From assembly GCA_964513645.1 (NCBI GenBank), contig CAZENF010000003.1, positions 26,425 to 90,424 on the forward strand: a stretch of DNA of 64,000 nt. Direction: 5' to 3'. This DNA is from an uncultured Candidatus Saccharibacteria bacterium (GTDB lineage Bacteria > Patescibacteriota > Minisyncoccia > 2-02-FULL-40-12 > GWA2-44-9). The position numbers were made by a program, and so were the translations under genes. Shown piece after piece: positions 35,993-60,354 of this stretch (position 1 is its first letter; every line of letters starts with the position of its first letter). The notes below the pieces were generated by a model. The model had not been told where the DNA came from. It did not search any database and saw nothing but the letters and a program-made list of their open reading frames with translations.

Positions 35993-37807
35993 ATGAGCGA
36001 TAACATCTCTCAAATTAAAGAACGCCTGAATGTAGTGGACGTCATTTCGGGTTATATAAAGGTCCAGAAATCGGGGGTTAATTTTAAGGCCCGATGCCCT
36101 TTTCATAACGAGAAAACCCCGTCATTTTATATTTCTCCCGAACGTCAGATCTGGCATTGTTTTGGTTGTCAGAAGGGCGGAGATGTTTTCGGCTTCGTTA
36201 AGGAAATAGAAGGAGTCGAATTTCCTGAAGCCCTAAGGATGTTGGCCCAGAAGGCCGGTGTTAAGTTGCATAACTTTGATCCTTCGATAAAAGATAAAAA
36301 AGCGGTTCTCTACGAGATAACCGAAGTTTCCGCAAAGTTTTTTGAAAAACAGCTTCATCATTCATCGGTCGGCAAAAAAGCTTTTAACTATCTCAAAGAA
36401 AGAGGAATGTCTGAAGATACCATCACAGAATTCCGTCTCGGTTTTGCCCCGGATGACTGGCATGGATTGTCTAATTTTTTGCGTGATTGCGGTTATCAAG
36501 AAAAAGATATCGTTGAGTCTGGTTTGGCTATAAAAAAAGAGACCGGTGGCGATATTTATGACCGGTTCCGTTCGAGAATAATTTTTCCAATAGCCGATAT
36601 TCATGACCAGGTCGTGGGTTTTACTGGACGGGTGTTTGAATACGCCAAGACGCCCGAATTTCCCGGCCACAAAGCCGTTGAACCGGGAGCGAAATATATT
36701 AATACACCCCAGACCTCAATCTATGACAAAAGCCGTGTGCTCTACTGTCTGAACAAGGGAAAAACCGAGGCCCGGCAGGCAGACCGCTGCCTACTTGTCG
36801 AAGGCAATATGGATGCTATAATGTCATATCAAGCCGGAGTCAAGAACGTAGCTGCTACCTCAGGTACAGCCCTTACTCCGAGTCACCTGCAACTTTTGCA
36901 GAGATACACAAGTAACCTTGATTTTTGCTTCGATACTGACCAGGCCGGACTAGTCGCCACCAGGCGGGGATTGGGACTGGCTCTAAGCCAGAATTTAAAT
37001 GTTAAAATAATCCCCCTTAAAGATCCGGACTGTAAAGATCCTGCCGACTATGTTAAAAAGTTCGGTGAGAAGTGGCAGGAATTGGTTAAAACGGCTAAGC
37101 CGGTAGTAGATTTTTATTTTGAAAAGTTGAGTTCCGAGTTTGACCTGGCAAGCGTTGAAGGCAAAAAAGCCGTCATTGCCTCGCTCGGCCCCCTTATCCG
37201 GCGTTTGACCAGTCGGGTTGAACGTTCGCATTGGATATCCAAATTAGCCGTCGCTTTTAAGACCAAAGAAGACGCGATTGAAGCGGATATATTATCGGCA
37301 AAGGATGACCTCGATGTTTATATTGCCGACCAGCCCAAAAAAATTTCCGAACAAAAAGTTCCGGAGGTCAAACCGGTCGGGGATATGCTTCTCGAAGCTT
37401 TGCTTGCCGTTATTATCCGGAAGCCATTGTTGTTCAAAGATCATTTACCGGAATTAAGACCCGAATTGCTTAACGGACCGACTGCCGACATTGTAAGTGA
37501 AATTAAAAAAACAAATCTTGATAATTTCAAGTTCGGAAAATTTTCTGAAAGATTCGAGAATGCCGAGAAAATGCATCTCGAGTTTTCCTATCTGAAGGCC
37601 CAGGAATTTTTATCAGATTTCAGTGATGAAGACCTTGTGGCCGAATTCAATAATATCAGGAACAAACTTGAAAGACGGGCGCTGTCGGTTCAGCTGGCCG
37701 GACTCGAGTTCGATATCAAAGCGGCCGAAGCTGGAAAAGATAAAGTACGCTTGGCTGTGCTTTTGAAAGATTTCGACAAATTAGCCAAAGACCTGAATAA
37801 AAATTAA
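35993..37807 (+). CDS. dnaG: DNA primase DnaG
   Basis: CHC2 zinc finger [37 protein letters not shown] region ([15 protein letters not shown]). 604 aa. Confidence 0.9.
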
Positions 37808-37817
37808 TTTAAAAAAT

Positions 37818-39020
37818 TTGAAAAAGAATAAAAATAAAAAAGCTTCTAAGAAGCCAGCCAAGAAAAAGGTCAAAGCCTCCAAACCTAAGAAGGTCAAAAA
37901 ACTTAAGAAAGTTAGTAAGACGAGAGAGGCTTCGCCTAAAAAGTCGCCTATCACTGAAGGTCAGGTTTTGGCTTTGATAGAAAAAGGCAAACACCGGGGC
38001 TTTGTCACTCAAGCCGAAATAATCAATACTTTTCCCAATCTTGAAAAGGACATTAAAGGCCTCGAAGGATTATATGATCGTCTTGAAGCTTCGAACATAA
38101 ACATCATTGAATCCGGTCAGGTTTTTCATGAGGAAAAGGCGAGAGAGTATGATGAAAAGAAAAAAGTCGAACTGGAACTTGAAGAGGCCTCGACCTCGGA
38201 CTCGGTCCAGATGTATCTTCGTGAAATAGGTAAATACGCTCTTTTGTCGAGTGAAGAGGAAGTAGAATTGGCCAAAAGGATAGAGAAGAACGACGAAGCG
38301 GCCCGTCACAAACTGGCGCTTTCAAATTTGCGTTTGGTTGTTTCTATTGCCAAAAAATATGTCGGCCGTTCGCCGAATCTGACATTACTTGATTTGATAC
38401 AGGAGGGGAACATCGGTTTGTTCAAAGCGGTTGAAAAATTCGATTACAAGCGTGGTTATAAATTTTCGACTTACGCCACCTGGTGGATACGGCAAGCCAT
38501 TACGCGTGCCTTGGCTGATCAGGGCAAAACCATCCGTATCCCGGTTCACATGGTTGAGACGATAAATAAATACCAGCAGGTTGTCCGGCGTTTGGTCCAG
38601 GACCTGGGCCGCGAACCGTTGCCGGAAGAAACAGCTGCCGAAATGGGTGTTGAAGTCGACAAGATAAGATATATCCAGAAGATTTCCCAGGACACCGTTT
38701 CTCTTGAAGCACCGGTGGGCCAGGACGATGAAGACAGCGCTCTTGAAAGTTTTATTCCTGATGAAGACACCATCACGCCTTCAATGGCTACCGCGCGTAA
38801 AATTCTCAAGACCCATTTGCAGGAGATAATCAATGACCTGACTCCAAGAGAGCAGAAAATTCTCGATATGCGTTTTGGTCTGACTGACGGCGTGACCCAC
38901 ACTCTGGAAGAAGTAGGCAAGGTCTTCACCGTCACCCGCGAACGTATCAGGCAAATCGAAGCCAAGGCTCTCGAAAAAATCAGGCAACACCATAAGGTAG
39001 AGAAGCTAAAAGGATACTAA
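37818..39020 (+). CDS. rpoD: RNA polymerase sigma factor RpoD with Lys-rich N-terminal tail
   Basis: Region 2 ([40 protein letters not shown]) and region 4.2 ([24 protein letters not shown]). Directly downstream of dnaG, the classic MMS operon. Confidence 0.9.
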
Positions 39021-48411: not shown

Positions 48412-49266
48412 CTACGGCGTTGGTGTCGGAGTAGGGGTTACAATCGGCGTGGGCGTCGGAGTCGGCGTAGCCGTCGGCGTTGGTGTCGGAGTAGGAGTAG
48501 CCGTCGGCGTTGGCGTTGCAGTAGGTGTAGGGGTTGCTGTTGGGATTGGCGTTGGTGTTGCCGTCGGGACGGGAGTCGCGGTTGGGACAGGGGTGGCTGT
48601 CGGAGCCGGTGTTGCCGTTGGAACTGGTGTTGCTGTTGGGGTCGGGGTCGGGGTCGGACTGTTTAGACAGCGGTTTTTAGGCAGTTTAAGGTCATGAGGA
48701 TTTATATTGTGAAGGGCCATCAGGATTCCTTTCCGGGCTGCGTTCTGGGCTTCGGGACTCATGCCATCATAAGCGGCAAGAATTGCCTTGTAAGCCGCAA
48801 TCGGGTCGGAGGTACTGTCGCATATCGGCTTTTTAGGAAGAGTTTCAACCCAGGCAAGTAAAGTGGACATGGCCGAGTTTATCGCATCGATATATGTCTG
48901 TTTATCCGAAGCGCTCATGGTGCCTGGCGCGCGAATCGCTTCTTCGTAGGATTTTACAGCTTTAAAAAGAGCGCCGTAGTATTTTTTCTCGTCGGAACTA
49001 TTTATATCTTTCAAAACTTGCCCGATGTCTTTGCCATGAAAGAATTTTGCTCCTTCATTATCAACCGGACGTCCGAACGACGCCATATATACCTGATTTA
49101 AAGTATTATCATCGACTCCTTGACTGACTCCCTGGTTGTTCTGGTCTTCTGAATCATGGGCGGATGCCGATGGAATATAATTTCGGGCCATTATGAGGCC
49201 GGACATAACTCCGACCGACAGAACGGCGACCATTGTTATTATTGTTATTTTTTTCGATATATACAT
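48412..49266 (-). CDS. hypothetical membrane-anchored protein with C-terminal Pro/Thr-rich repeat tail
   Basis: N-terminal signal anchor, ~190-aa globular domain, then ~80 aa of ([12 protein letters not shown]) repeats. Confidence 0.5.
48418..48690. repeat. tandem degenerate hexanucleotide-multiple repeats encoding the PT linker
   Basis: ggcgtcggagtaggg / gttggtgtcgga units repeated ~15 times. Confidence 0.7.
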
Positions 49267-50208: not shown

Positions 50209-50419
50209 AGAATTCCGGGGCTCTCCAATAAGGGTGGGCAAGTAGCGAAATGGGCGAAATACAAATGTCTTTGTATTTCGCGGGTTTTTCAGCAGAAAAA
50301 CCCAAGTTTTCAAAAAATAAGCGACGGCGCAATTTTTTGAAAAAGCGGCTCAGTCCTGAGCGTGAGCGAAGGACATCCGCTCTGCCATGCTATCCGGAAT
50401 AAAAATTGAAAATTTTATA

Positions 50420-50680
50420 TTCCGGCGTAGCTCAATGGTAGAGCGGCTCCCTGTGAAATGAATCGCAGCTTTCCATCGAAAGGTGGATTGAAACACTTCG
50501 GGATATCGGTGAAGCCCTAATTCGAAAGAATGGGTAATACCGAGGGAACCCGCAAGGGGCACCGTAGAGACTAGATACCGAAGCACCCTTTTTGGGGTGA
50601 TGATATAGTCCACACCATACGAAAGTATTGGGCAACGTGTAAGGAGATGGTTCCAGGTTCGAGTCCTGGCGCCGGAGCCA
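50420..50680 (+). tRNA. intron-containing tRNA, best fit tRNA-Asn(GUU)
   Basis: 5' exon 50420..50453 (TCCGGCG-TA-GCTC-AATGGTA-GAGC-G-GCTCC-CTGT). 3' exon 50640..50680 (TAA-GGAGA-TGGTT-CCAGG-TTCGAGT-CCTGG-CGCCGGA-G-CCA). The spliced anticodon loop CUGUUAA, U1-A72 and G73 fit Asn. Thr(UGU) is the alternative if the splice site is read 2 nt upstream. Confidence 0.7.
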
Positions 50681-52228
50681 AGAAGGATGAACATCTGCGG
50701 AAGCAGGTGTTTTTCCTTTATTAGCTATGTTTTTTGCCGGTTCGAAAGTGGAATTCAGCTTTGGCATCCACTCTGCCAAAAATTCGAACGCAAATGTGTA
50801 ATTTGCGCTTATTTTATCTGCATCCAATGTAAGGTTCGAAAATACATAGCTCAACAGCAACCGGCGGTCCTCAACAGTCGCTTTCTCGCTCTGATAAATC
50901 TGCTTGGCTTTCAACGCGAGCTCGTGAATGGCAAAGCCAGCGGCATAGTATTGCGTGTTTGATTGGTCGAGCTTTCCGAGCTTCTCGAGGATGTTTTCTT
51001 TCTCTTCTGTGTATTCTTTGAATTTGCGCTCATAGAATTCCGGCGCAATCTTGCCGTCTATCTTATCCTCGTAGATTGCTTCCAAGCGGCGCTGAATGCG
51101 CTCTGACTGCGTTACAAGCTCGCGCTTCTGTGCCTCGTAGTAATTTATTTCTTCGGCGTGGCTCTCTTTGAGCGCCTTCTCGAGCAAGCGCAACACACGC
51201 TCATTCTTGGGCGCTACGCCATCGAAGAATGGAAAGAGTTGTTCTTCCACCTTCTCCTGTCTGATGGTCCCTTTTCGTGGGCAACCCTTGTAGTGATTGC
51301 AGTCGCCATACCAGTGGCCTTTCTTGGTATACCAAGTGATAGTGCCACCACAGTCGAGACATTGGACCTTTGCTTTGAACACAGGCAGATGCTTTCGATA
51401 TACAGGGGCTTTGAGTTTCCTTGCGAGCTTTGCCTGCACTTCTTCGAACAGCTCTCTTGAGATTATCGGCTCATGTTCACCCGGATAGATTTCATCTTTC
51501 CATCGGACCTTGCCGTAATAGAAAGGGTCTGAAAGCAAATCGTGCATCCTGCTTTTTCCAACCTTGCCGCCATTTCGGTTTCTCAATCCTTCCTTATACA
51601 TCGTGTCAACGAGAGAGTGCGTTGAATGATTGCCTGAAGAATATAGCTCGAACATTCTGCGGATGTATGGCGCCTTCTCCGGGTCAATGAGATGAATCCG
51701 GTGCCCCTTGTCTCCGTCCGACTTATAACCAAGCGGCGGTTTCGTTGGCAGCCATCCCTGTGCCAATTTTTCTTTCTGTCCTTTCTTCACTTCTTCGGAG
51801 AGGTTGTTGGTGTAGAAGCGAGCAATAGCAACTTTCATATCCCAAACCAAATTTTCGTGGGCCCGGGTGTTTTTGTTCAATACGAAATTCTCTTTTACAA
51901 AGTGAACCTCGCGCTTCGGGTCCGCTTTCACCCAGTCATCAATCGTGCTGGCGTCTTTCAGATTTCTTGTAAGGCGGTCAATCTTTTCACAAGCGATGAT
52001 GTGGACCTTGTGCTTCTCGGCATACTGCATCATTTCGTTGAGAGATTTGCGAATCTGTTTACCGCTTGCCGATTCAGTTATCTTGTAAACTTTCGGGACT
52101 ACAAAACCATGTCTGTCCGAGTAGTCCTTGAGCAGCTTTTCCTGCGCTTCCAATGAATAGCCGGTTTCTTCCTGTTCTTTGGAAGAGACACGGCAGTATA
52201 TGAGTGATTTTTGAGTAGTTATTTCCAT
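50432..52228 (-). CDS. large serine recombinase (resolvase/invertase catalytic domain + recombinase domain + zinc ribbon + coiled coil)
   Basis: N-terminal LIYCRVSSKEQ and KIDRLTRN catalytic-Ser motifs, and the CLDCGG...CNHYKGC zinc ribbon. The last ~85 codons of the ORF are antisense to the tRNA 3' exon and intron, so the true C-terminus is uncertain. Confidence 0.8.
   Translation of the reverse strand: MEITTQKSLIYCRVSSKEQEETGYSLEAQEKLLKDYSDRHGFVVPKVYKITESASGKQIRKSLNEMMQYAEKHKVHIIACEKIDRLTRNLKDASTIDDWVKADPKREVHFVKENFVLNKNTRAHENLVWDMKVAIARFYTNNLSEEVKKGQKEKLAQGWLPTKPPLGYKSDGDKGHRIHLIDPEKAPYIRRMFELYSSGNHSTHSLVDTMYKEGLRNRNGGKVGKSRMHDLLSDPFYYGKVRWKDEIYPGEHEPIISRELFEEVQAKLARKLKAPVYRKHLPVFKAKVQCLDCGGTITWYTKKGHWYGDCNHYKGCPRKGTIRQEKVEEQLFPFFDGVAPKNERVLRLLEKALKESHAEEINYYEAQKRELVTQSERIQRRLEAIYEDKIDGKIAPEFYERKFKEYTEEKENILEKLGKLDQSNTQYYAAGFAIHELALKAKQIYQSEKATVEDRRLLLSYVFSNLTLDADKISANYTFAFEFLAEWMPKLNSTFEPAKNIANKGKTPASADVHPSWLRRQDSNLEPSPYTLPNTFVWCGLYHHPKKGASVSSLYGAPCGFPRYYPFFRIRASPISRSVSIHLSMESCDSFHREPLYH
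50454..50639 (+). ncRNA. group I self-splicing intron (small IC3/Azoarcus-like) in the tRNA anticodon loop
   Basis: R-like CCGTAGAGACTAGATACCG and S-like GATGATATAGTCC elements form P7 (AGACUA/UAGUC). Q-like ACCCGCAAGG and P-like AATTCGAAAG elements. P1 can form between exon CUGU and intron GCAG with the U.G pair at the splice site. P2 ccatc-GAAA-ggtgg. Omega G precedes the 3' exon. Confidence 0.7.
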
Positions 52229-55624: not shown

Positions 55625-57337
55625 ATGGCACGCAAAATAAATTACGACAACTGGTCAAGAGAAGAATTGGAAAAGGAGCTTCGCCGCTTGAAAGAGACGA
55701 AGTATGGTCTTGTTTGGCATCGAGACCTTCCCGAAGAAAAGATTGATGTGCTTATCAATCCCGATGCTCGCACGCCAAATGAAATGTTCCCGAACGAGAT
55801 GGCAGGCAAACCATTTCCAGTTTTGAAAGAAGCAAAATCGAAAGAGGTCAACGGAGATAAAGATAAGCGAATCAACTTGCTTATCGAGGGAGATAATTTT
55901 CATTCACTCGCCGTTCTCAACTTTTCTCATCAAGAAGCGGTGGACCTGATTTACATCGACCCCCCTTATAACCGAGGTGTGAAAGGTGGCAATGATTTCC
56001 GCTATAACGACAAATTTATTGATAGCGAAGACCCTTTTCGGCACAGCAAATGGCTTTCCTTTATGGAAAAAAGGTTGAAGCTGGCAAAGAATTTGATGAA
56101 AGCAACAGGCGTTATTTTCATCAGCATTGACAATACAGAGCAAGCGCCACTGCGCTTACTGTGTGATGAAATTTTTGGGGATAAGAATTTCGTTGGCACT
56201 TTGATTTGGAGAAAAAAAGAAGGTGGCGGCCAAGCTGACGCATATTTTGTTACCGAACATGAATATGTTTTGGCCTACGCAAAGTCCGATAAGTTTCAAT
56301 GGAAGGACGAAGAAATTCCAGTTGATGAAGCGGAATACAACAAGGAAGACGATGAGGGTAAATTCACAGCCGTAAAGTTGGCGAAATGGGGCAACACCGC
56401 TCGAAGAGAGGACCGCCCAAAGATGTATTTCCCTATAAAGTCCCCGGATGGCAAAAATGTTTATCCCATTGCACCCGATGGTGGTGATGGGCGCTGGCGT
56501 GTAGGCAAAAAACGGATGGATATGTTGGTTGAGAAAGACCTTGTTTATTGGCAACAGAAAAATGGCAAGTGGATACCCTACGAGAAGATTTATTTTGATG
56601 GTGATGAAGTCAAGAAAATAAAGGAGAGAAGTATTCTGTTTGACCTTGCCACAACCGCTGACGGAACCAATGAGCTTACGGAAATTTTCGGTAAGAAGGA
56701 TATTTTCGAAAACCCGAAACCAACAGAGCTCATCAAATTCTTTCTCCGTTATGGTGCGGACACTAATGCTGTTGTGCTGGATTTCTTTGCTGGTTCCGGC
56801 ACCACCGGCCAAGCGGTAATGAAAGCAAACCAAGAGGACGGCGGTAATCGCCAATTCATACTGTGCACCAATGACGAGAATGGTATTTGCACGGAAGTTT
56901 GCTATCCACGCCTCAAGAAAGTTATCAAGGGATACAAAAATCCCAAGAATAAAAATGTCGATGGTCTTGGTGGTAATTTGAAATACTTCACTTGCGACTT
57001 CGTAGAAGCAGAGCCAACGGACAGGAATAAAAGAAAGTTGGTCAACGAATCAACGGATATGCTTTGCATCCGAGAGAATGCTTTTGAGTTGGTGCAAGAT
57101 GGGACTGACTTCAAGATTTTCAAGAACGGCGCAAAGTATCTTGGTATCGTCTTTCACGAGGATGCTATTGATGATTTCAAAAAGGCCATAAAGAAAATGG
57201 ACGGCAAATTCAATGTGTATGTGTTCTCGCTGGGAGATGACCCACACGAGAAGCAGTTTATGGATGTAAGAGAAAAGGTCGCTCTCTGTGCCATACCGGA
57301 GGTCATCTTGAAGGTGTATAGAGAGATTTTCAAATAA
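55625..57337 (+). CDS. mod: Type III restriction-modification Mod subunit (beta-class N6-adenine DNA methyltransferase)
   Basis: Motif IV LIYIDPPYN early, motif I LDFFAGSGTTG late (beta order). 570 aa. Immediately followed by res. Confidence 0.8.
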   Translation: MARKINYDNWSREELEKELRRLKETKYGLVWHRDLPEEKIDVLINPDARTPNEMFPNEMAGKPFPVLKEAKSKEVNGDKDKRINLLIEGDNFHSLAVLNFSHQEAVDLIYIDPPYNRGVKGGNDFRYNDKFIDSEDPFRHSKWLSFMEKRLKLAKNLMKATGVIFISIDNTEQAPLRLLCDEIFGDKNFVGTLIWRKKEGGGQADAYFVTEHEYVLAYAKSDKFQWKDEEIPVDEAEYNKEDDEGKFTAVKLAKWGNTARREDRPKMYFPIKSPDGKNVYPIAPDGGDGRWRVGKKRMDMLVEKDLVYWQQKNGKWIPYEKIYFDGDEVKKIKERSILFDLATTADGTNELTEIFGKKDIFENPKPTELIKFFLRYGADTNAVVLDFFAGSGTTGQAVMKANQEDGGNRQFILCTNDENGICTEVCYPRLKKVIKGYKNPKNKNVDGLGGNLKYFTCDFVEAEPTDRNKRKLVNESTDMLCIRENAFELVQDGTDFKIFKNGAKYLGIVFHEDAIDDFKKAIKKMDGKFNVYVFSLGDDPHEKQFMDVREKVALCAIPEVILKVYREIFK

Positions 57338-57341
57338 ATTT

Positions 57342-59573
57342 ATGTGGATTGAATTCAAAGATTATCAAGAAAAAGCCATTGTCAAATTGAAGCAAGAGGT
57401 CAATGACCTCTTGGAGGCCGATGGTAATAAAATTTGCATATTCAAAGCTCCGACCGGCTCCGGTAAGACACTGATGATGGCCGAGTTTTTGAAGCGCCTT
57501 ATTGATTCGAGAATTGACGACAAGAAGTTTTCTTTTATTTGGATTGCTGTGAACAAGTTGCATGACCAAAGCCGCAATAGCTTGAAAAAATACTATGAAC
57601 CACTTGGTATTGCTCTCAAGTGTTCTTATTTCGATGACTTGGATGACCGAAAAATTGGTCCGAATGAAATCCTATTTTTGAACTGGGCAAGCATCAACAA
57701 GAAAGACAATGTGTATGTTCGAGAAAATGAACGAGACAACAACCTCTCGAATATCATTGCACGCACCAAAGAAGAAGGTCGGTCAATCATTTTGATAATT
57801 GATGAGAGCCATCGAAATGCAGAAACAGAAAAATCAAAAGAGCTTATTGATGACATTGGCCCGAAAATCACCATAGAAGTTTCAGCTACGCCGCAGCTCA
57901 AGGGAGTATTTCGTGGTGTGGAGGTTGAACTCAAAGCCGTAAAGGATGAGGGAATGATAAAGAAAGAGGTTGCAATCAACCCGGGATTTGAGACCCTCAA
58001 ACTCGATAAAAAACTTGCTGACAAAACAGCCGATGAAATTGTTGTTGAGGCCGGATTGAAAAAGCGCCTTGAGCTCGCCAAGCAATACGCAGCCGAGGGG
58101 TCAAATGTGAACCCACTCACGCTTATTCAGATACCGGATGCTCGTGCCGGATTGGATAAGAAAGACGCTGTGATTCAGCTTCTTGCTAAATATGGAATTA
58201 CGACAGAGAACGGCAAGCTGGCAATTTATTTGTCCGACAAAGACAACAAGGTCAACCTTGAGAACATAGAGAAAAATGAAAACGAGGTTGAGGTGATGAT
58301 TTTCAAACAAGCCATTGCTGTGGGTTGGGATTGTCCCCGTGCTGCAATCTTGGTGTTATTCCGCGAGTGGAAGAATGTGGTTTTCTCGATTCAAACTATC
58401 GGACGCATTATGCGCATGCCGGAGCACCACCACTACAACAGCTCGGAGCTCAACATGGGCTATGTATACACGAGCTTGAGCGACATCGGTATCGCAGAGG
58501 ATATTTCAAGAGAATACATCACTGTTTTTGAGGGCAATAGGCGTAAGGATTACAAAAACATTGACCTCGCCTCTGTTCACTCAAAACGCTTCCGAGAAGA
58601 AACTCGATTGTCATCTGACTTTGTGCCGATATTTTTCAAAGCAGCAGATGAATTGAAATTGAAAAAGAGCATCTCGCTCAAGCACAGCATCGTAGATACC
58701 AAGCTCATTGCAAGCGGCAAAATTACAGATGTAGATAAAGAGGCAAAGAGTATTGAAAAGAAAGGCACGCTGGATATACCAAAGAATGAAGTCGAGCTAC
58801 AAAATGCCTTCGACTACTTCGCTCGAGAAAATCTTGCTCCCTTTGCACCGGAACTACGCTCGATAAAGCGTATCAATGATTCTATCTATCGTTTCTTCGA
58901 TAAAGAATTCAAAATGGGTGTTGATGAATGGCCGAAGGTGCAAGCAGTGGTCTTGGCAGAGGAAAATCGGCAGAAAATGGTTGATGTTATCAATCGTGCA
59001 AAGGAGCTCTACCAAGATGTTGTTGGTAGAGGTAAACAAGAGTTGGTTGAAAACGAAGAGCCGTGGAATGTGCCGGAGACCATCAACTACAACCTGACCT
59101 TCACGAAGAAAGATTATAAGAAATCAATTATCCAGCCATACTACGCAAGGACAGGCAATGGCAACCTCGAGCTATTCGAAGAAGACAGCGACATCGAAGT
59201 GGACTTTATTGCCTACTTGGAAAAAGCAAAACAAGTGAAGTGGTGGTTCAAGAATGGCCGACAGGATGGCTCATATTTTGCCGTGCCATACACCGAAAAT
59301 GGCATTGAGAAGCCCTTCTATGTCGATTTCGTTGTAATGCTCTCTGACGGCAAAATAGGCCTGTTTGACACGAAGGGTGGCATCTATGCCAAGACGGCCA
59401 AAGAGCGCGCCGAGGGCCTCGCTGCCTATATCGAAAATGAGAATAAGCACGGCAAGAAGTTGCTTGGCGGTATCGTGCTGAAAGACAAAGGTAGCTGGCG
59501 ATACAGCGATAGCAAGAAATACTCTTACGACCCCAAAGACCTTACCAAGTGGAAGTTTTTGGACCTCAACTGA
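57342..59573 (+). CDS. res: Type III restriction enzyme Res subunit (SF2 helicase + C-terminal PD-(D/E)xK nuclease)
   Basis: Helicase motif I FKAPTGSGKT and motif II IIDESHR. C-terminal EVDF...LEKAK nuclease-like motif. 743 aa. Confidence 0.75.
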   Translation: MWIEFKDYQEKAIVKLKQEVNDLLEADGNKICIFKAPTGSGKTLMMAEFLKRLIDSRIDDKKFSFIWIAVNKLHDQSRNSLKKYYEPLGIALKCSYFDDLDDRKIGPNEILFLNWASINKKDNVYVRENERDNNLSNIIARTKEEGRSIILIIDESHRNAETEKSKELIDDIGPKITIEVSATPQLKGVFRGVEVELKAVKDEGMIKKEVAINPGFETLKLDKKLADKTADEIVVEAGLKKRLELAKQYAAEGSNVNPLTLIQIPDARAGLDKKDAVIQLLAKYGITTENGKLAIYLSDKDNKVNLENIEKNENEVEVMIFKQAIAVGWDCPRAAILVLFREWKNVVFSIQTIGRIMRMPEHHHYNSSELNMGYVYTSLSDIGIAEDISREYITVFEGNRRKDYKNIDLASVHSKRFREETRLSSDFVPIFFKAADELKLKKSISLKHSIVDTKLIASGKITDVDKEAKSIEKKGTLDIPKNEVELQNAFDYFARENLAPFAPELRSIKRINDSIYRFFDKEFKMGVDEWPKVQAVVLAEENRQKMVDVINRAKELYQDVVGRGKQELVENEEPWNVPETINYNLTFTKKDYKKSIIQPYYARTGNGNLELFEEDSDIEVDFIAYLEKAKQVKWWFKNGRQDGSYFAVPYTENGIEKPFYVDFVVMLSDGKIGLFDTKGGIYAKTAKERAEGLAAYIENENKHGKKLLGGIVLKDKGSWRYSDSKKYSYDPKDLTKWKFLDLN

Positions 59574-59574
59574 T

Positions 59575-60354
59575 ATGAATTCATTCAAAGACATTGCATA
59601 TCAAATCTTGCAAGAAGCGGGCAAACCTCTTCACAGCAAGGAAATAACAAAAATCGCTCTTGAGCGTGGCTGGTTGAAAACTGCGGGTAAGACACCGGAG
59701 GCCACCATGAACGCTCAAATCGTGGTAGACATCAATGCGAAGAAAGATGCCTCAAGGTTTGTAAAAACTGCGCCATCAACATTTGGTATCAACCCGAGCC
59801 CCACCCTACAAGTGAAAGCGGCTGACAAGGTGAAAGTTTTTGAAGCCCCTCGTTTGGAAAAGAAATGGAAAGTTTCTGCAAATATCTCGACCAAACAGAA
59901 AGGAGATATTGCCGAAGCTCGCATTGCAGAGCTCATCACTTTGTATGGCGATACCACTTTGTCATGCTACAAACCAATTTCTGATGACGAAGGGATTGAC
60001 CTTATCGTGAAAGAGAAAGGTAGTTTGCGGACAATGTATATCCAAATCAAAAGTCGCTTTGGAGATAATCCGGACGATATTTTCACAGCAACCGCAAAAG
60101 CAGGCACACTTGCAGACAATTACTCGATGGCCATAGTGTTTTGCTTTTTCGACACCGAAGAAGGCGATGTATGGGACTTTGTGTGGTTTGTGCCGGCACC
60201 GGATTTTATCAAGATGGCCAATAAGTTGGATGGTGGAAAGATGTTTGGTTTTGTTGCTGGCCGACAAAAGAAAGAATCAAACAAGTGGGACCAGTATTTG
60301 ATTGATAAGCGAGATTTGGCAAATGCCATTCTCGCTCAAATGAAACGGATATGA
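59575..60354 (+). CDS. HARE-HTH domain protein fused to a PD-(D/E)xK nuclease-like domain
   Basis: N-terminal DIAYQILQEAGKPLHSKEI...TPEATMNAQIVVDI...RFVKTAPSTFGI fits HARE-HTH. C-terminal AEARIAELI / DDEGIDLIV / YIQIKS fits E...D...QxK. Confidence 0.5.
   Translation: MNSFKDIAYQILQEAGKPLHSKEITKIALERGWLKTAGKTPEATMNAQIVVDINAKKDASRFVKTAPSTFGINPSPTLQVKAADKVKVFEAPRLEKKWKVSANISTKQKGDIAEARIAELITLYGDTTLSCYKPISDDEGIDLIVKEKGSLRTMYIQIKSRFGDNPDDIFTATAKAGTLADNYSMAIVFCFFDTEEGDVWDFVWFVPAPDFIKMANKLDGGKMFGFVAGRQKKESNKWDQYLIDKRDLANAILAQMKRI

Follow-up and report, generated by a model that had tools for sequence, protein, structure and literature searches.

The number of bacterial tRNA intron types was raised from 4 to 21 by Williams (bioRxiv 10.1101/2020.01.27.920355, as cited in PMC13011429), who in 2020 mapped the type Asn.4Ug, i.e. 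the introns that lie between positions 35 and 36 of tRNA-Asn (hereafter 35/36 introns). For 95 complete genomes of Patescibacteria, Nakagawa et al. (mSystems, January 2026; PMC13011429) reported 35/36 group I introns in 15 tRNA-Asn, 3 tRNA-Asp and 1 tRNA-Tyr genes, gave intron lengths of 184-894 nt, and demonstrated precise, guanosine-dependent self-splicing in vitro, with a terminal G-to-C control, for one Asn intron (GCA_016700035.1) and one Asp intron (GCA_001029755.1). Here, we analyze a locus of this kind at positions 50421-50680 of a 64-kb stretch of bacterial DNA (the window, by which we mean the whole stretch that was analyzed). With a probability of roughly 0.93, the locus is a tRNA-Asn(GUU) gene that is split between U35 and U36 by a group I intron of 185 nt lacking an endonuclease gene.

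The window intron shares with the published Patescibacteria 35/36 introns the host tRNA (Asn), the insertion site after U35, the U ahead of the 5' splice site, the terminal G and the internal guide GCAG. A core sequence, CCGTAGAGACTAGATACC, is common to the window and to the introns of GCA_030583765.1 (Asn; Paceibacteria), GCA_023898525.1 (Asp) and GCA_016699995.1 (Tyr), the first of which also has the architecture found in the window, and, as in most of the published Patescibacteria cases, no endonuclease gene is present. A search for the exact window sequence gave no string match among the 22 Patescibacteria tRNA introns in the tables of PMC13011429. Since this supplement holds the same core and architecture but not the sequence itself, the window intron is a new sequence of a known kind and, as judged from its letters, a further example of what has been published. 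The initial annotation of the window had considered tRNA-Asn interrupted at 35/36 an unusual host and site; this view is overtaken by the mapping of 2020 and by the self-splicing shown in 2026 (PMC13011429).

Exons and anticodon loop

The 5' exon occupies 50421..50454 on the plus strand (TCCGGCG...CCCTGT; in full TCCGGCGTAGCTCAATGGTAGAGCGGCTCCCTGT) and comprises the acceptor strand, the D arm, the anticodon stem and loop positions 32-35 (CUGU), with T50454, i.e. U35, as the last base ahead of the 5' splice site. The 3' exon (50640..50680, plus strand; TAAGGAGA...CGCCGGAGCCA, in full TAAGGAGATGGTTCCAGGTTCGAGTCCTGGCGCCGGAGCCA) contributes U36, A37, A38, the anticodon stem, the variable loop, the T arm, the acceptor strand, the discriminator G73 and a CCA encoded in the gene. 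When joined at 35/36, the exons form a cloverleaf of 75 nt with the anticodon loop CUGUUAA, which is called tRNA-Asn(gtt) by ARAGORN. Against annotated phage genomes, the joined exons have tRNA-Asn genes as all of their top full-length matches, at identities of up to 82.7%. Both results bear out the initial annotation, in which a 75-nt tRNA with a best fit to Asn-GUU had been proposed.

The order of CUGU, an intron ending in G, and UAA, which yields CUGUUAA, corresponds to a GUN-anticodon tRNA that is interrupted at 35/36 and, once joined, regains a loop of 7 nt. Placement of the splice site between these two anticodon positions, as originally suggested, is confirmed by the U•G wobble at U35, the terminal G50639 and the Asn(gtt) call on the joined exons. 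The intron itself had been drawn at 50454-50639 with a length of about 186 nt; its 3' end is retained, while its start was one base off. Because the loop CUGUUAA needs a 5' exon ending at T50454, the intron spans 50455-50639, that is 185 nt. If 50454 is taken as the first intron base, joining gives a product of 74 nt with a loop of 6 nt.

Fold, family and covariation of the intron

The insert (50455..50639, plus strand) is a group I intron without an open reading frame (ORF) of its own, as had been proposed, and this assignment is carried by the Rfam model Intron_gpI (RF00028), by a covariance model of its relatives (R1, 163.2 bits) and by covariation. RF00028 matches end to end (model positions 1-253) with 47.9 bits and an E-value of 2.3e-11 for 341 nt searched, and the fold of the precursor stands apart from those of shuffled sequences (z = -3.1). 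We placed the helices by hand in window coordinates, and every core helix of the window intron is complete with standard pairs. Likewise, the hallmarks listed by the initial annotation, namely the R and S core elements, the P7 pairing, a GAAA-capped P2, a 5' U paired with an internal GCAG and a terminal (omega) G, are all present in the sequence.

All elements lie on the plus strand. P1 (50451..50468) pairs CUGUGA (50451-50456) with UCGCAG (50463-50468); within it, the guide GCAG (50465-50468) pairs with CUGU of the anticodon loop, and the wobble U50454•G50465 marks the 5' splice site. P2 (50472..50487) is a hairpin of 50472-50477 and 50482-50487 with a GAAA loop, seen by covariation and by RNAalifold. 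The covarying P3 is formed by CUUCGG (50496..50501) and CCGAAG (50578..50583). P4 (50506..50543; 50506-50511 with 50538-50543) encloses P5 (50515-50517 with 50532-50534) and P5a (50520-50523 with 50528-50531, GAAA loop), followed by P6 (50544..50563; 50544-50545 with 50562-50563) and P6a (50549-50551 with 50556-50558, GCAA loop). The R element (CCGTAGAGACTAGATACCG, 50562-50580) and the S element (GATGATATAGTCC, 50599-50611) were recognized by sequence. Within this R/S core, which is matched by RF00028, the 5' strand of P7 (a G, a bulged A and GACUA, 50567..50573) pairs with UAGUCC (50606..50611), and the guanosine-binding pair is presumably G50569-C50610. P8 (50584..50599) is a hairpin of short form, made of CACCC (50584-50588) and GGGUG (50595-50599). 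P9.0 (50612..50638; 50612-50613 with 50637-50638) encloses P9 (50615-50620 with 50625-50631), which has a GAAA loop and a single bulged U and is supported by covariation. The terminal G50639, conserved in the relatives, is the final base of the intron.

Relatives were searched with one exact 18-mer of the core, CCGTAGAGACTAGATACC, over species-representative genomes. It matched at least 120 loci, and among the matches listed nearly all are metagenome-assembled genomes (MAGs) of Patescibacteria. A rule-based parser, which required the 5' site to follow a U and the 3' site to follow a G and asked for a loop of 7 nt and for the anticodon, T and acceptor stems, assigned 83 of the 120 matches listed to tRNAs for Asn, Asp or Tyr that are interrupted after U35. 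The window and these 83 listed relatives comprise 38 Asn (window included), 29 Asp and 17 Tyr hosts, with introns of 180-274 nt; tRNA-His(GUG), the fourth tRNA with a loop starting in CUGU, is the host in none of the 120 matches listed. The covariance model R1, built from 28 relatives with the window excluded, has a single match in the whole 64 kb, which covers 50449-50642 at full length with an E-value of 1.2e-45. All 84 sources are matched by R1 at full length with 131-202 bits, and the 163 bits of the window fall inside the range of its 83 relatives.

Covariation strongly favors the fold over slid pairings. In a MAFFT alignment of 29 short introns, 86.6% of the cells are paired under the hand-made structure compared to 35-44% with slid partners, and the cells with double changes number 222 compared to 39-75. 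RNAalifold, blind to the hand-made structure, recovers P2, P3, P4, P5, P6, P8 and P9. The variable hairpins P5a, P6a and P9 were misplaced by MAFFT (49-64% paired) and were resolved by a model-based alignment of 88 introns, in which 95.3% of the cells are paired and compensatory changes are seen in 34 of 41 pairs, figures that are biased towards the model to which the alignment was fitted. P3, P4, P5, P6 and P8 each have 90-100% paired cells and many compensatory changes. As to single helices, all six pairs of P2 show compensatory changes, P3 is paired in 100% of the cells with four of six pairs covarying, P4 is also 100% paired and has an A-U/U-A switch in its outer pair, P5 has a G-C/C-G switch in the outer pair, and four of five pairs covary in P8. 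In P9.0, C-G is replaced by U-A in 10 of 29 sequences, and P9 covaries in the model-based alignment. In P1, no variation in C-G, U-A, G-C and U•G was seen across 29 relatives, and covariation (AU/CG/GC) sets in at the pair that follows, while the guide GCAG is found in 80 of 82 family members.

The relatives also bear on the splice register. Two bases upstream, splicing would take place after U33 with G50637 as the terminal base, giving the anticodon UGU (Thr). ARAGORN indeed accepts this product as a tRNA-Thr(tgt) of 75 nt and, run with introns allowed (-i), gives Thr(tgt) for many of the listed loci; for many published relatives the same call comes from ARAGORN and tFind (PMC13011429). However, U33 faces an A in P1, not a G, whereas the U•G sits at U35 in 24 of the 24 aligned relatives that have letters there. 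The terminal base of the upstream register is a G in only 61 of 82 parsed relatives and covaries in P9.0, whereas that of the 35/36 register is a G in 82 of 82. Moreover, the exon body matches tRNA-Asn genes, and sequencing of the products of in vitro splicing gave the 35/36 junction for relatives (PMC13011429). We thus regard the Thr register as very improbable. For the window itself, ARAGORN -i wrongly proposes a tRNA-His(gtg) whose 171-nt intron would follow 37/38 and would have to be spliced by proteins as in archaea, and the same output is obtained for two of the listed loci (L025 and L086). Such a tRNA-His needs a long, irregular 3' half, its insert is a complete group I ribozyme, its exon body matches tRNA-Asn, and no listed family member resolves as His under the rules of a U•G wobble and a terminal G; the chance that it is real is close to nil.

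By analogy with experimentally tested relatives, splicing of the tRNA-Asn precursor at 35/36 can be pictured as follows. The transcript would run through 50421-50680 and end at the hairpin 50689-50712, which belongs to a terminator-like hairpin with a subsequent T run (50689..50720, plus strand) found just 3' of the CCA by a consensus scan only. The intron would fold into P1-P9, and the guide GCAG would pair with C32-U35, with U35 (50454) forming the U•G wobble that sets the 5' splice site. A free, exogenous guanosine in P7 would attack after U35; next, the terminal G50639, placed by P9.0, would occupy the guanosine site, and the 3'-OH of U35 would attack after G50639, which would ligate U35 to U36 and leave a 75-nt tRNA with the loop CUGUUAA. 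On these grounds, we infer that the locus 50421-50680 is expressed and that its intron is catalytic.

Several points weigh against this interpretation. The introns tested in vitro (PMC13011429) are not the closest relatives of the compact form present in the window, and no convincing P10 with the 3' exon was found. In P7 and in pairs one to four of P1, no variation is seen among the relatives, so that these parts draw on conservation only. The RF00028 score is 2 bits under the curated gathering threshold (50 bits), and a standard Rfam scan at this threshold reports no group I intron in the window; the survey of PMC13011429 employed E < 1e-4 as its criterion, not the gathering score. Finally, the window most likely belongs to the Patescibacteria (candidate phyla radiation, CPR), a placement that is read from relatives only, i.e. 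from those of the intron and from a sigma-factor gene that is about 71% identical in DNA sequence to Parcubacteria loci.

The same data serve to judge whether the intron has decayed, such that the locus would be a tRNA-Asn pseudogene with a ribozyme relic and another copy would be used. Activity of the window copy is a prediction, its P6 domain is the second-shortest in the family, the P8 receptor motif of some relatives is absent, and the locus adjoins mobile DNA. Yet the core helices are all intact, the R1 score is within the family range, and neither the U•G wobble nor the terminal G nor the P7 sequence has been lost. In several lineages there are relatives of 180-186 nt whose elements are just as short, and no second tRNA-Asn was found within the 64-kb window. 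A decayed intron is hence very improbable, and we retain the intact, split tRNA-Asn gene as our interpretation.

Size and subgroup of the compact lineage

The window intron falls 20 nt short of the published intron nearest to it (205 nt; GCA_030583765.1), and the difference lies mainly in P6, P8 and P5. Its P6 domain comprises 13 nt compared to a median of 22 nt and is exceeded in shortness by only one of 82 relatives; the intron is short because this minimal P6 domain is combined with a short P8 and P5. The initial annotation had ranked it among the smallest group I ribozymes, which is right inasmuch as the length is near the family minimum of 180 nt; it is not the smallest, as 6 of the 82 introns measured have at most 185 nt. 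Short relatives among the matches listed have 180, 181, 184 and 185 nt, and the minimum length in PMC13011429 is 184 nt.

The subgroup is less clear-cut. An Azoarcus/IC3 type had been proposed for the window intron, and both the inventory of helices and the profile similarity look IC3-like, but the subgroup covariance models of PMC13011429 put no Patescibacteria tRNA intron in IC and, of 28 introns at 35/36, assigned 25 to IA. P7.1/P7.2, the hallmark of subgroup IA, was not found in the window intron, and there is no room for it because only 32 nt lie between the P7 strands, all of which are used by the 3' strand of P3 and by P8. The layout is compact and IC3-like, with P2 present, P5abc and P7.1/P7.2 absent, and a GNRA loop on P9. 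With the IC3 introns of bacterial tRNAs, such as the Arg(UCU), Leu(UAA) and Bacillota_A Asn 35/36 introns labelled IC3 in Table S5 of PMC13011429, the window intron has in common a compact P1-P9, P2, a simple P5, the absence of P7.1/P7.2 and GNRA loops on P2 and P9, and the sequences of P4, P6, J6/7-P7 and J8/7 are very similar; unlike the IC3/Azoarcus type, its P8 lacks the 11-nt tetraloop receptor.

We compared a profile of the compact family by nhmmer to a small, hand-picked panel, which is not a classifier. From Table S5 of PMC13011429, tRNA introns labelled IC3 score 13-54 bits across the core, among them a Bacteroidota Arg(UCU) intron with 54 bits and a Bacillota_A Asn 35/36 intron with 38 bits, both matched over nearly the whole core, compared to 11.5 bits for IB2 and 8.3 bits for IA1. 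The labels of this table are unstable, since a set of four similar Bacillota tRNA-Arg(UCU) introns is divided into one IB3 and three IC3. Two larger published Asn introns of Patescibacteria (GCA_016699245.1 and GCA_016700315.1) have extra sequence between P7 and P8, and the profile matches only their 3' part, with 22-25 bits.

As to tertiary contacts, window P5 carries a variant receptor-like motif (CCUAAU/AAUGG) and window P8 carries none. Among 82 relatives, receptor-like motifs are found in P5 of 31 and in P8 of 19. In the structure of the Azoarcus tRNA-Ile(CAU) intron, to which the window intron probably bears a likeness, P5 and P8 provide the tetraloop receptors for the P9 and P2 loops. 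The Azoarcus intron lies after position 36 of tRNA-Ile(CAU), a host and a site unlike those of the window. The tRNA-Leu(UAA) intron of cyanobacteria and plastids is likewise of the self-splicing type, located in the anticodon loop and spliced after a U, but it has another host tRNA, is inserted at 34/35 instead of 35/36 and is classed as IC3. In Nostoc this intron is longer, about 250 nt. The tRNA-Leu(UAA) intron served as the positive control in PMC13011429.

Altogether, the compact lineage, characterized by 180-210 nt, the core CCGTAGAGACTAGATACC and the hosts Asn, Asp and Tyr, may structurally be a ribozyme of the IC3/Azoarcus type. If true, this would run counter to PMC13011429, according to which no Patescibacteria tRNA intron is IC, and would place the lineage among the smallest natural group I ribozymes.

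Besides the introns at 35/36, genomes of listed relatives hold second group I introns that match the R1 family more weakly (31-73 bits). Examples are L076 7501-7681, L058 4775-4980, L061 7299-7499, L080 6914-7099, L106 3680-3862, L045 5043-5226 and L006 2044-2238, with others besides. Judged from the flanking sequence, their hosts are tRNA-Thr(GGU)-like tRNAs and tRNAs with a CAU anticodon, which fits the 'divergent' Thr introns of PMC13011429 being relatives of the Asn/Asp lineage. The same 18-nt core also occurs in MAGs outside the Patescibacteria, namely in a Bdellovibrio (L032) and in a member of the Bdellovibrionales (L062), with 106-111 bits to the family model; the host in L062 looks like tRNA-Leu(UAA). 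Several labels ('Gammaproteobacteria', 'Bacteroidetes' and 'Ignavibacteriota') among the matches listed may reflect errors of binning or labelling, or transfer. In many related tRNA-Asn introns, the end of an ORF resembling an HNH endonuclease (C..NCH motif) is located just 5' of the core and replaces the 5' exon of the tRNA (L096, L120, L018, L097, L081, L078, L038, L047, L049, L066 and L037). Owing to these HNH-like ORF ends, the ribozyme family can be said to exist in an endonuclease-carrying form, too; endonuclease-carrying 35/36 introns are known from four genomes (PMC13011429).

Mobile DNA and annotation of the locus

Just downstream of the tRNA-Asn gene and convergent with it lies a large serine recombinase ORF of 598 aa (50432-52228, minus strand) with Pfam matches to Resolvase and Recombinase. 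In antisense orientation, it crosses the terminator, the 3' exon and all of the intron and ends at a TGA stop in the D loop, so that 81 of its codons read through the tRNA and intron. In eight other listed loci (L114, L012, L109, L007, L020, L049, L066 and L091), homologous genes for recombinases adjoin or overlap the intron-bearing tRNA-Asn at its 3' end; at Asp or Tyr loci, none was found among the matches listed. An ORF that stays open across the entire tRNA and intron, together with this recurrent proximity, raises the question whether the conservation of the locus reflects protein coding, with the C-terminus of the antisense recombinase under selection. However, the antisense frame is not kept open in the relatives: it stops 8-16 codons into the tRNA in five of six parsed recombinase-bearing relatives and in most others, too. 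The long read-through in the window is therefore accidental. Furthermore, the substitutions are compensatory for base pairing and not codon-like, the Pfam domains lie within residues 10-270 of 598, and a shared C-terminal motif, STFEP, identified by DNA comparison with a relative, is located about 30 residues before the frame enters the tRNA. Selection on the protein is thus scarcely credible.

The recombinase genes suggest a family of integrative elements that use tRNA-Asn. With recombinase genes abutting and overlapping its 3' end in at least nine genomes, and with orphan copies of its first ~20 nt upstream in four, the intron-bearing tRNA-Asn might repeatedly serve mobile DNA as a docking site, and recombinase elements, rather than homing endonucleases, might help to move the intron-containing allele between lineages. 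That the compact lineage is of the IC3 type and that tRNA-Asn is such a docking site, both taken together, we consider unlikely. A second copy of the tRNA 3' end, as the far end of an integrated element, was not found in the window. A perfect 21-nt inverted repeat (50188-50208/50418-50438) places an inverted orphan copy of tRNA-Asn positions -3 to +18 at 209 nt upstream of the gene, with a terminator-like hairpin (50254-50281) between the two copies; the repeat could be the scar of a mobile element or delimit an invertible segment. Upstream of the intron-bearing tRNA-Asn of L109 (-177), L071 (-147) and L059 (-361 and -60; all relative to the start of the gene), its first ~20-30 nt are repeated as orphan fragments in direct orientation, and in L059 a GIY-YIG-like ORF is found between the orphan fragment and the complete gene.

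The window as a whole is bacterial chromosome, with genes for GroEL, DnaG, a sigma-70 factor, RNase J and ABC transporters. dnaG and the sigma-70 gene (35993-39020) are 11.4 kb away from tRNA-Asn, with ABC-transporter and thymidine kinase genes in between; in several relatives (L048, L082 and L118) the pair is ~1-3 kb from the intron-bearing tRNA-Asn. Downstream of the recombinase, a LOOT RNA (RF03000; 54818-54939, plus strand) is matched at full length with 62.6 bits compared to a gathering threshold of 46.4. It is followed, on the plus strand, by genes for an N6/N4 DNA methylase (55625-57337), a ResIII/helicase protein (57342-59573) and a HARE-HTH protein with a PD-(D/E)XK domain (59575-60354). 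The set 55625-60354 looks like a type III restriction-modification module and is possibly cargo of the recombinase element. On the other side of the tRNA gene, an ORF of 284 aa (48412-49266, minus strand) has a signal-like N-terminus, long C-terminal TPTPTATP repeats and no Pfam match.

With default settings, ARAGORN calls only a tRNA-Leu and a tRNA-Ser in the window and overlooks the split tRNA-Asn. Because default tRNA finders and the standard Rfam scan both miss the gene, the genome would look as if it had no tRNA-Asn and would appear less complete than it is. Such mis-annotation by standard tools, and its effect on completeness, has already been pointed out in PMC13011429. In summary, knowledge of group I introns and of tRNA biology is unchanged by the window example, whose main importance lies in annotation, as completeness is under-scored when a split tRNA-Asn is overlooked. 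In addition, a family that could supply minimal natural ribozymes gains with the window intron a further very short member (185 nt) that is free of an endonuclease.

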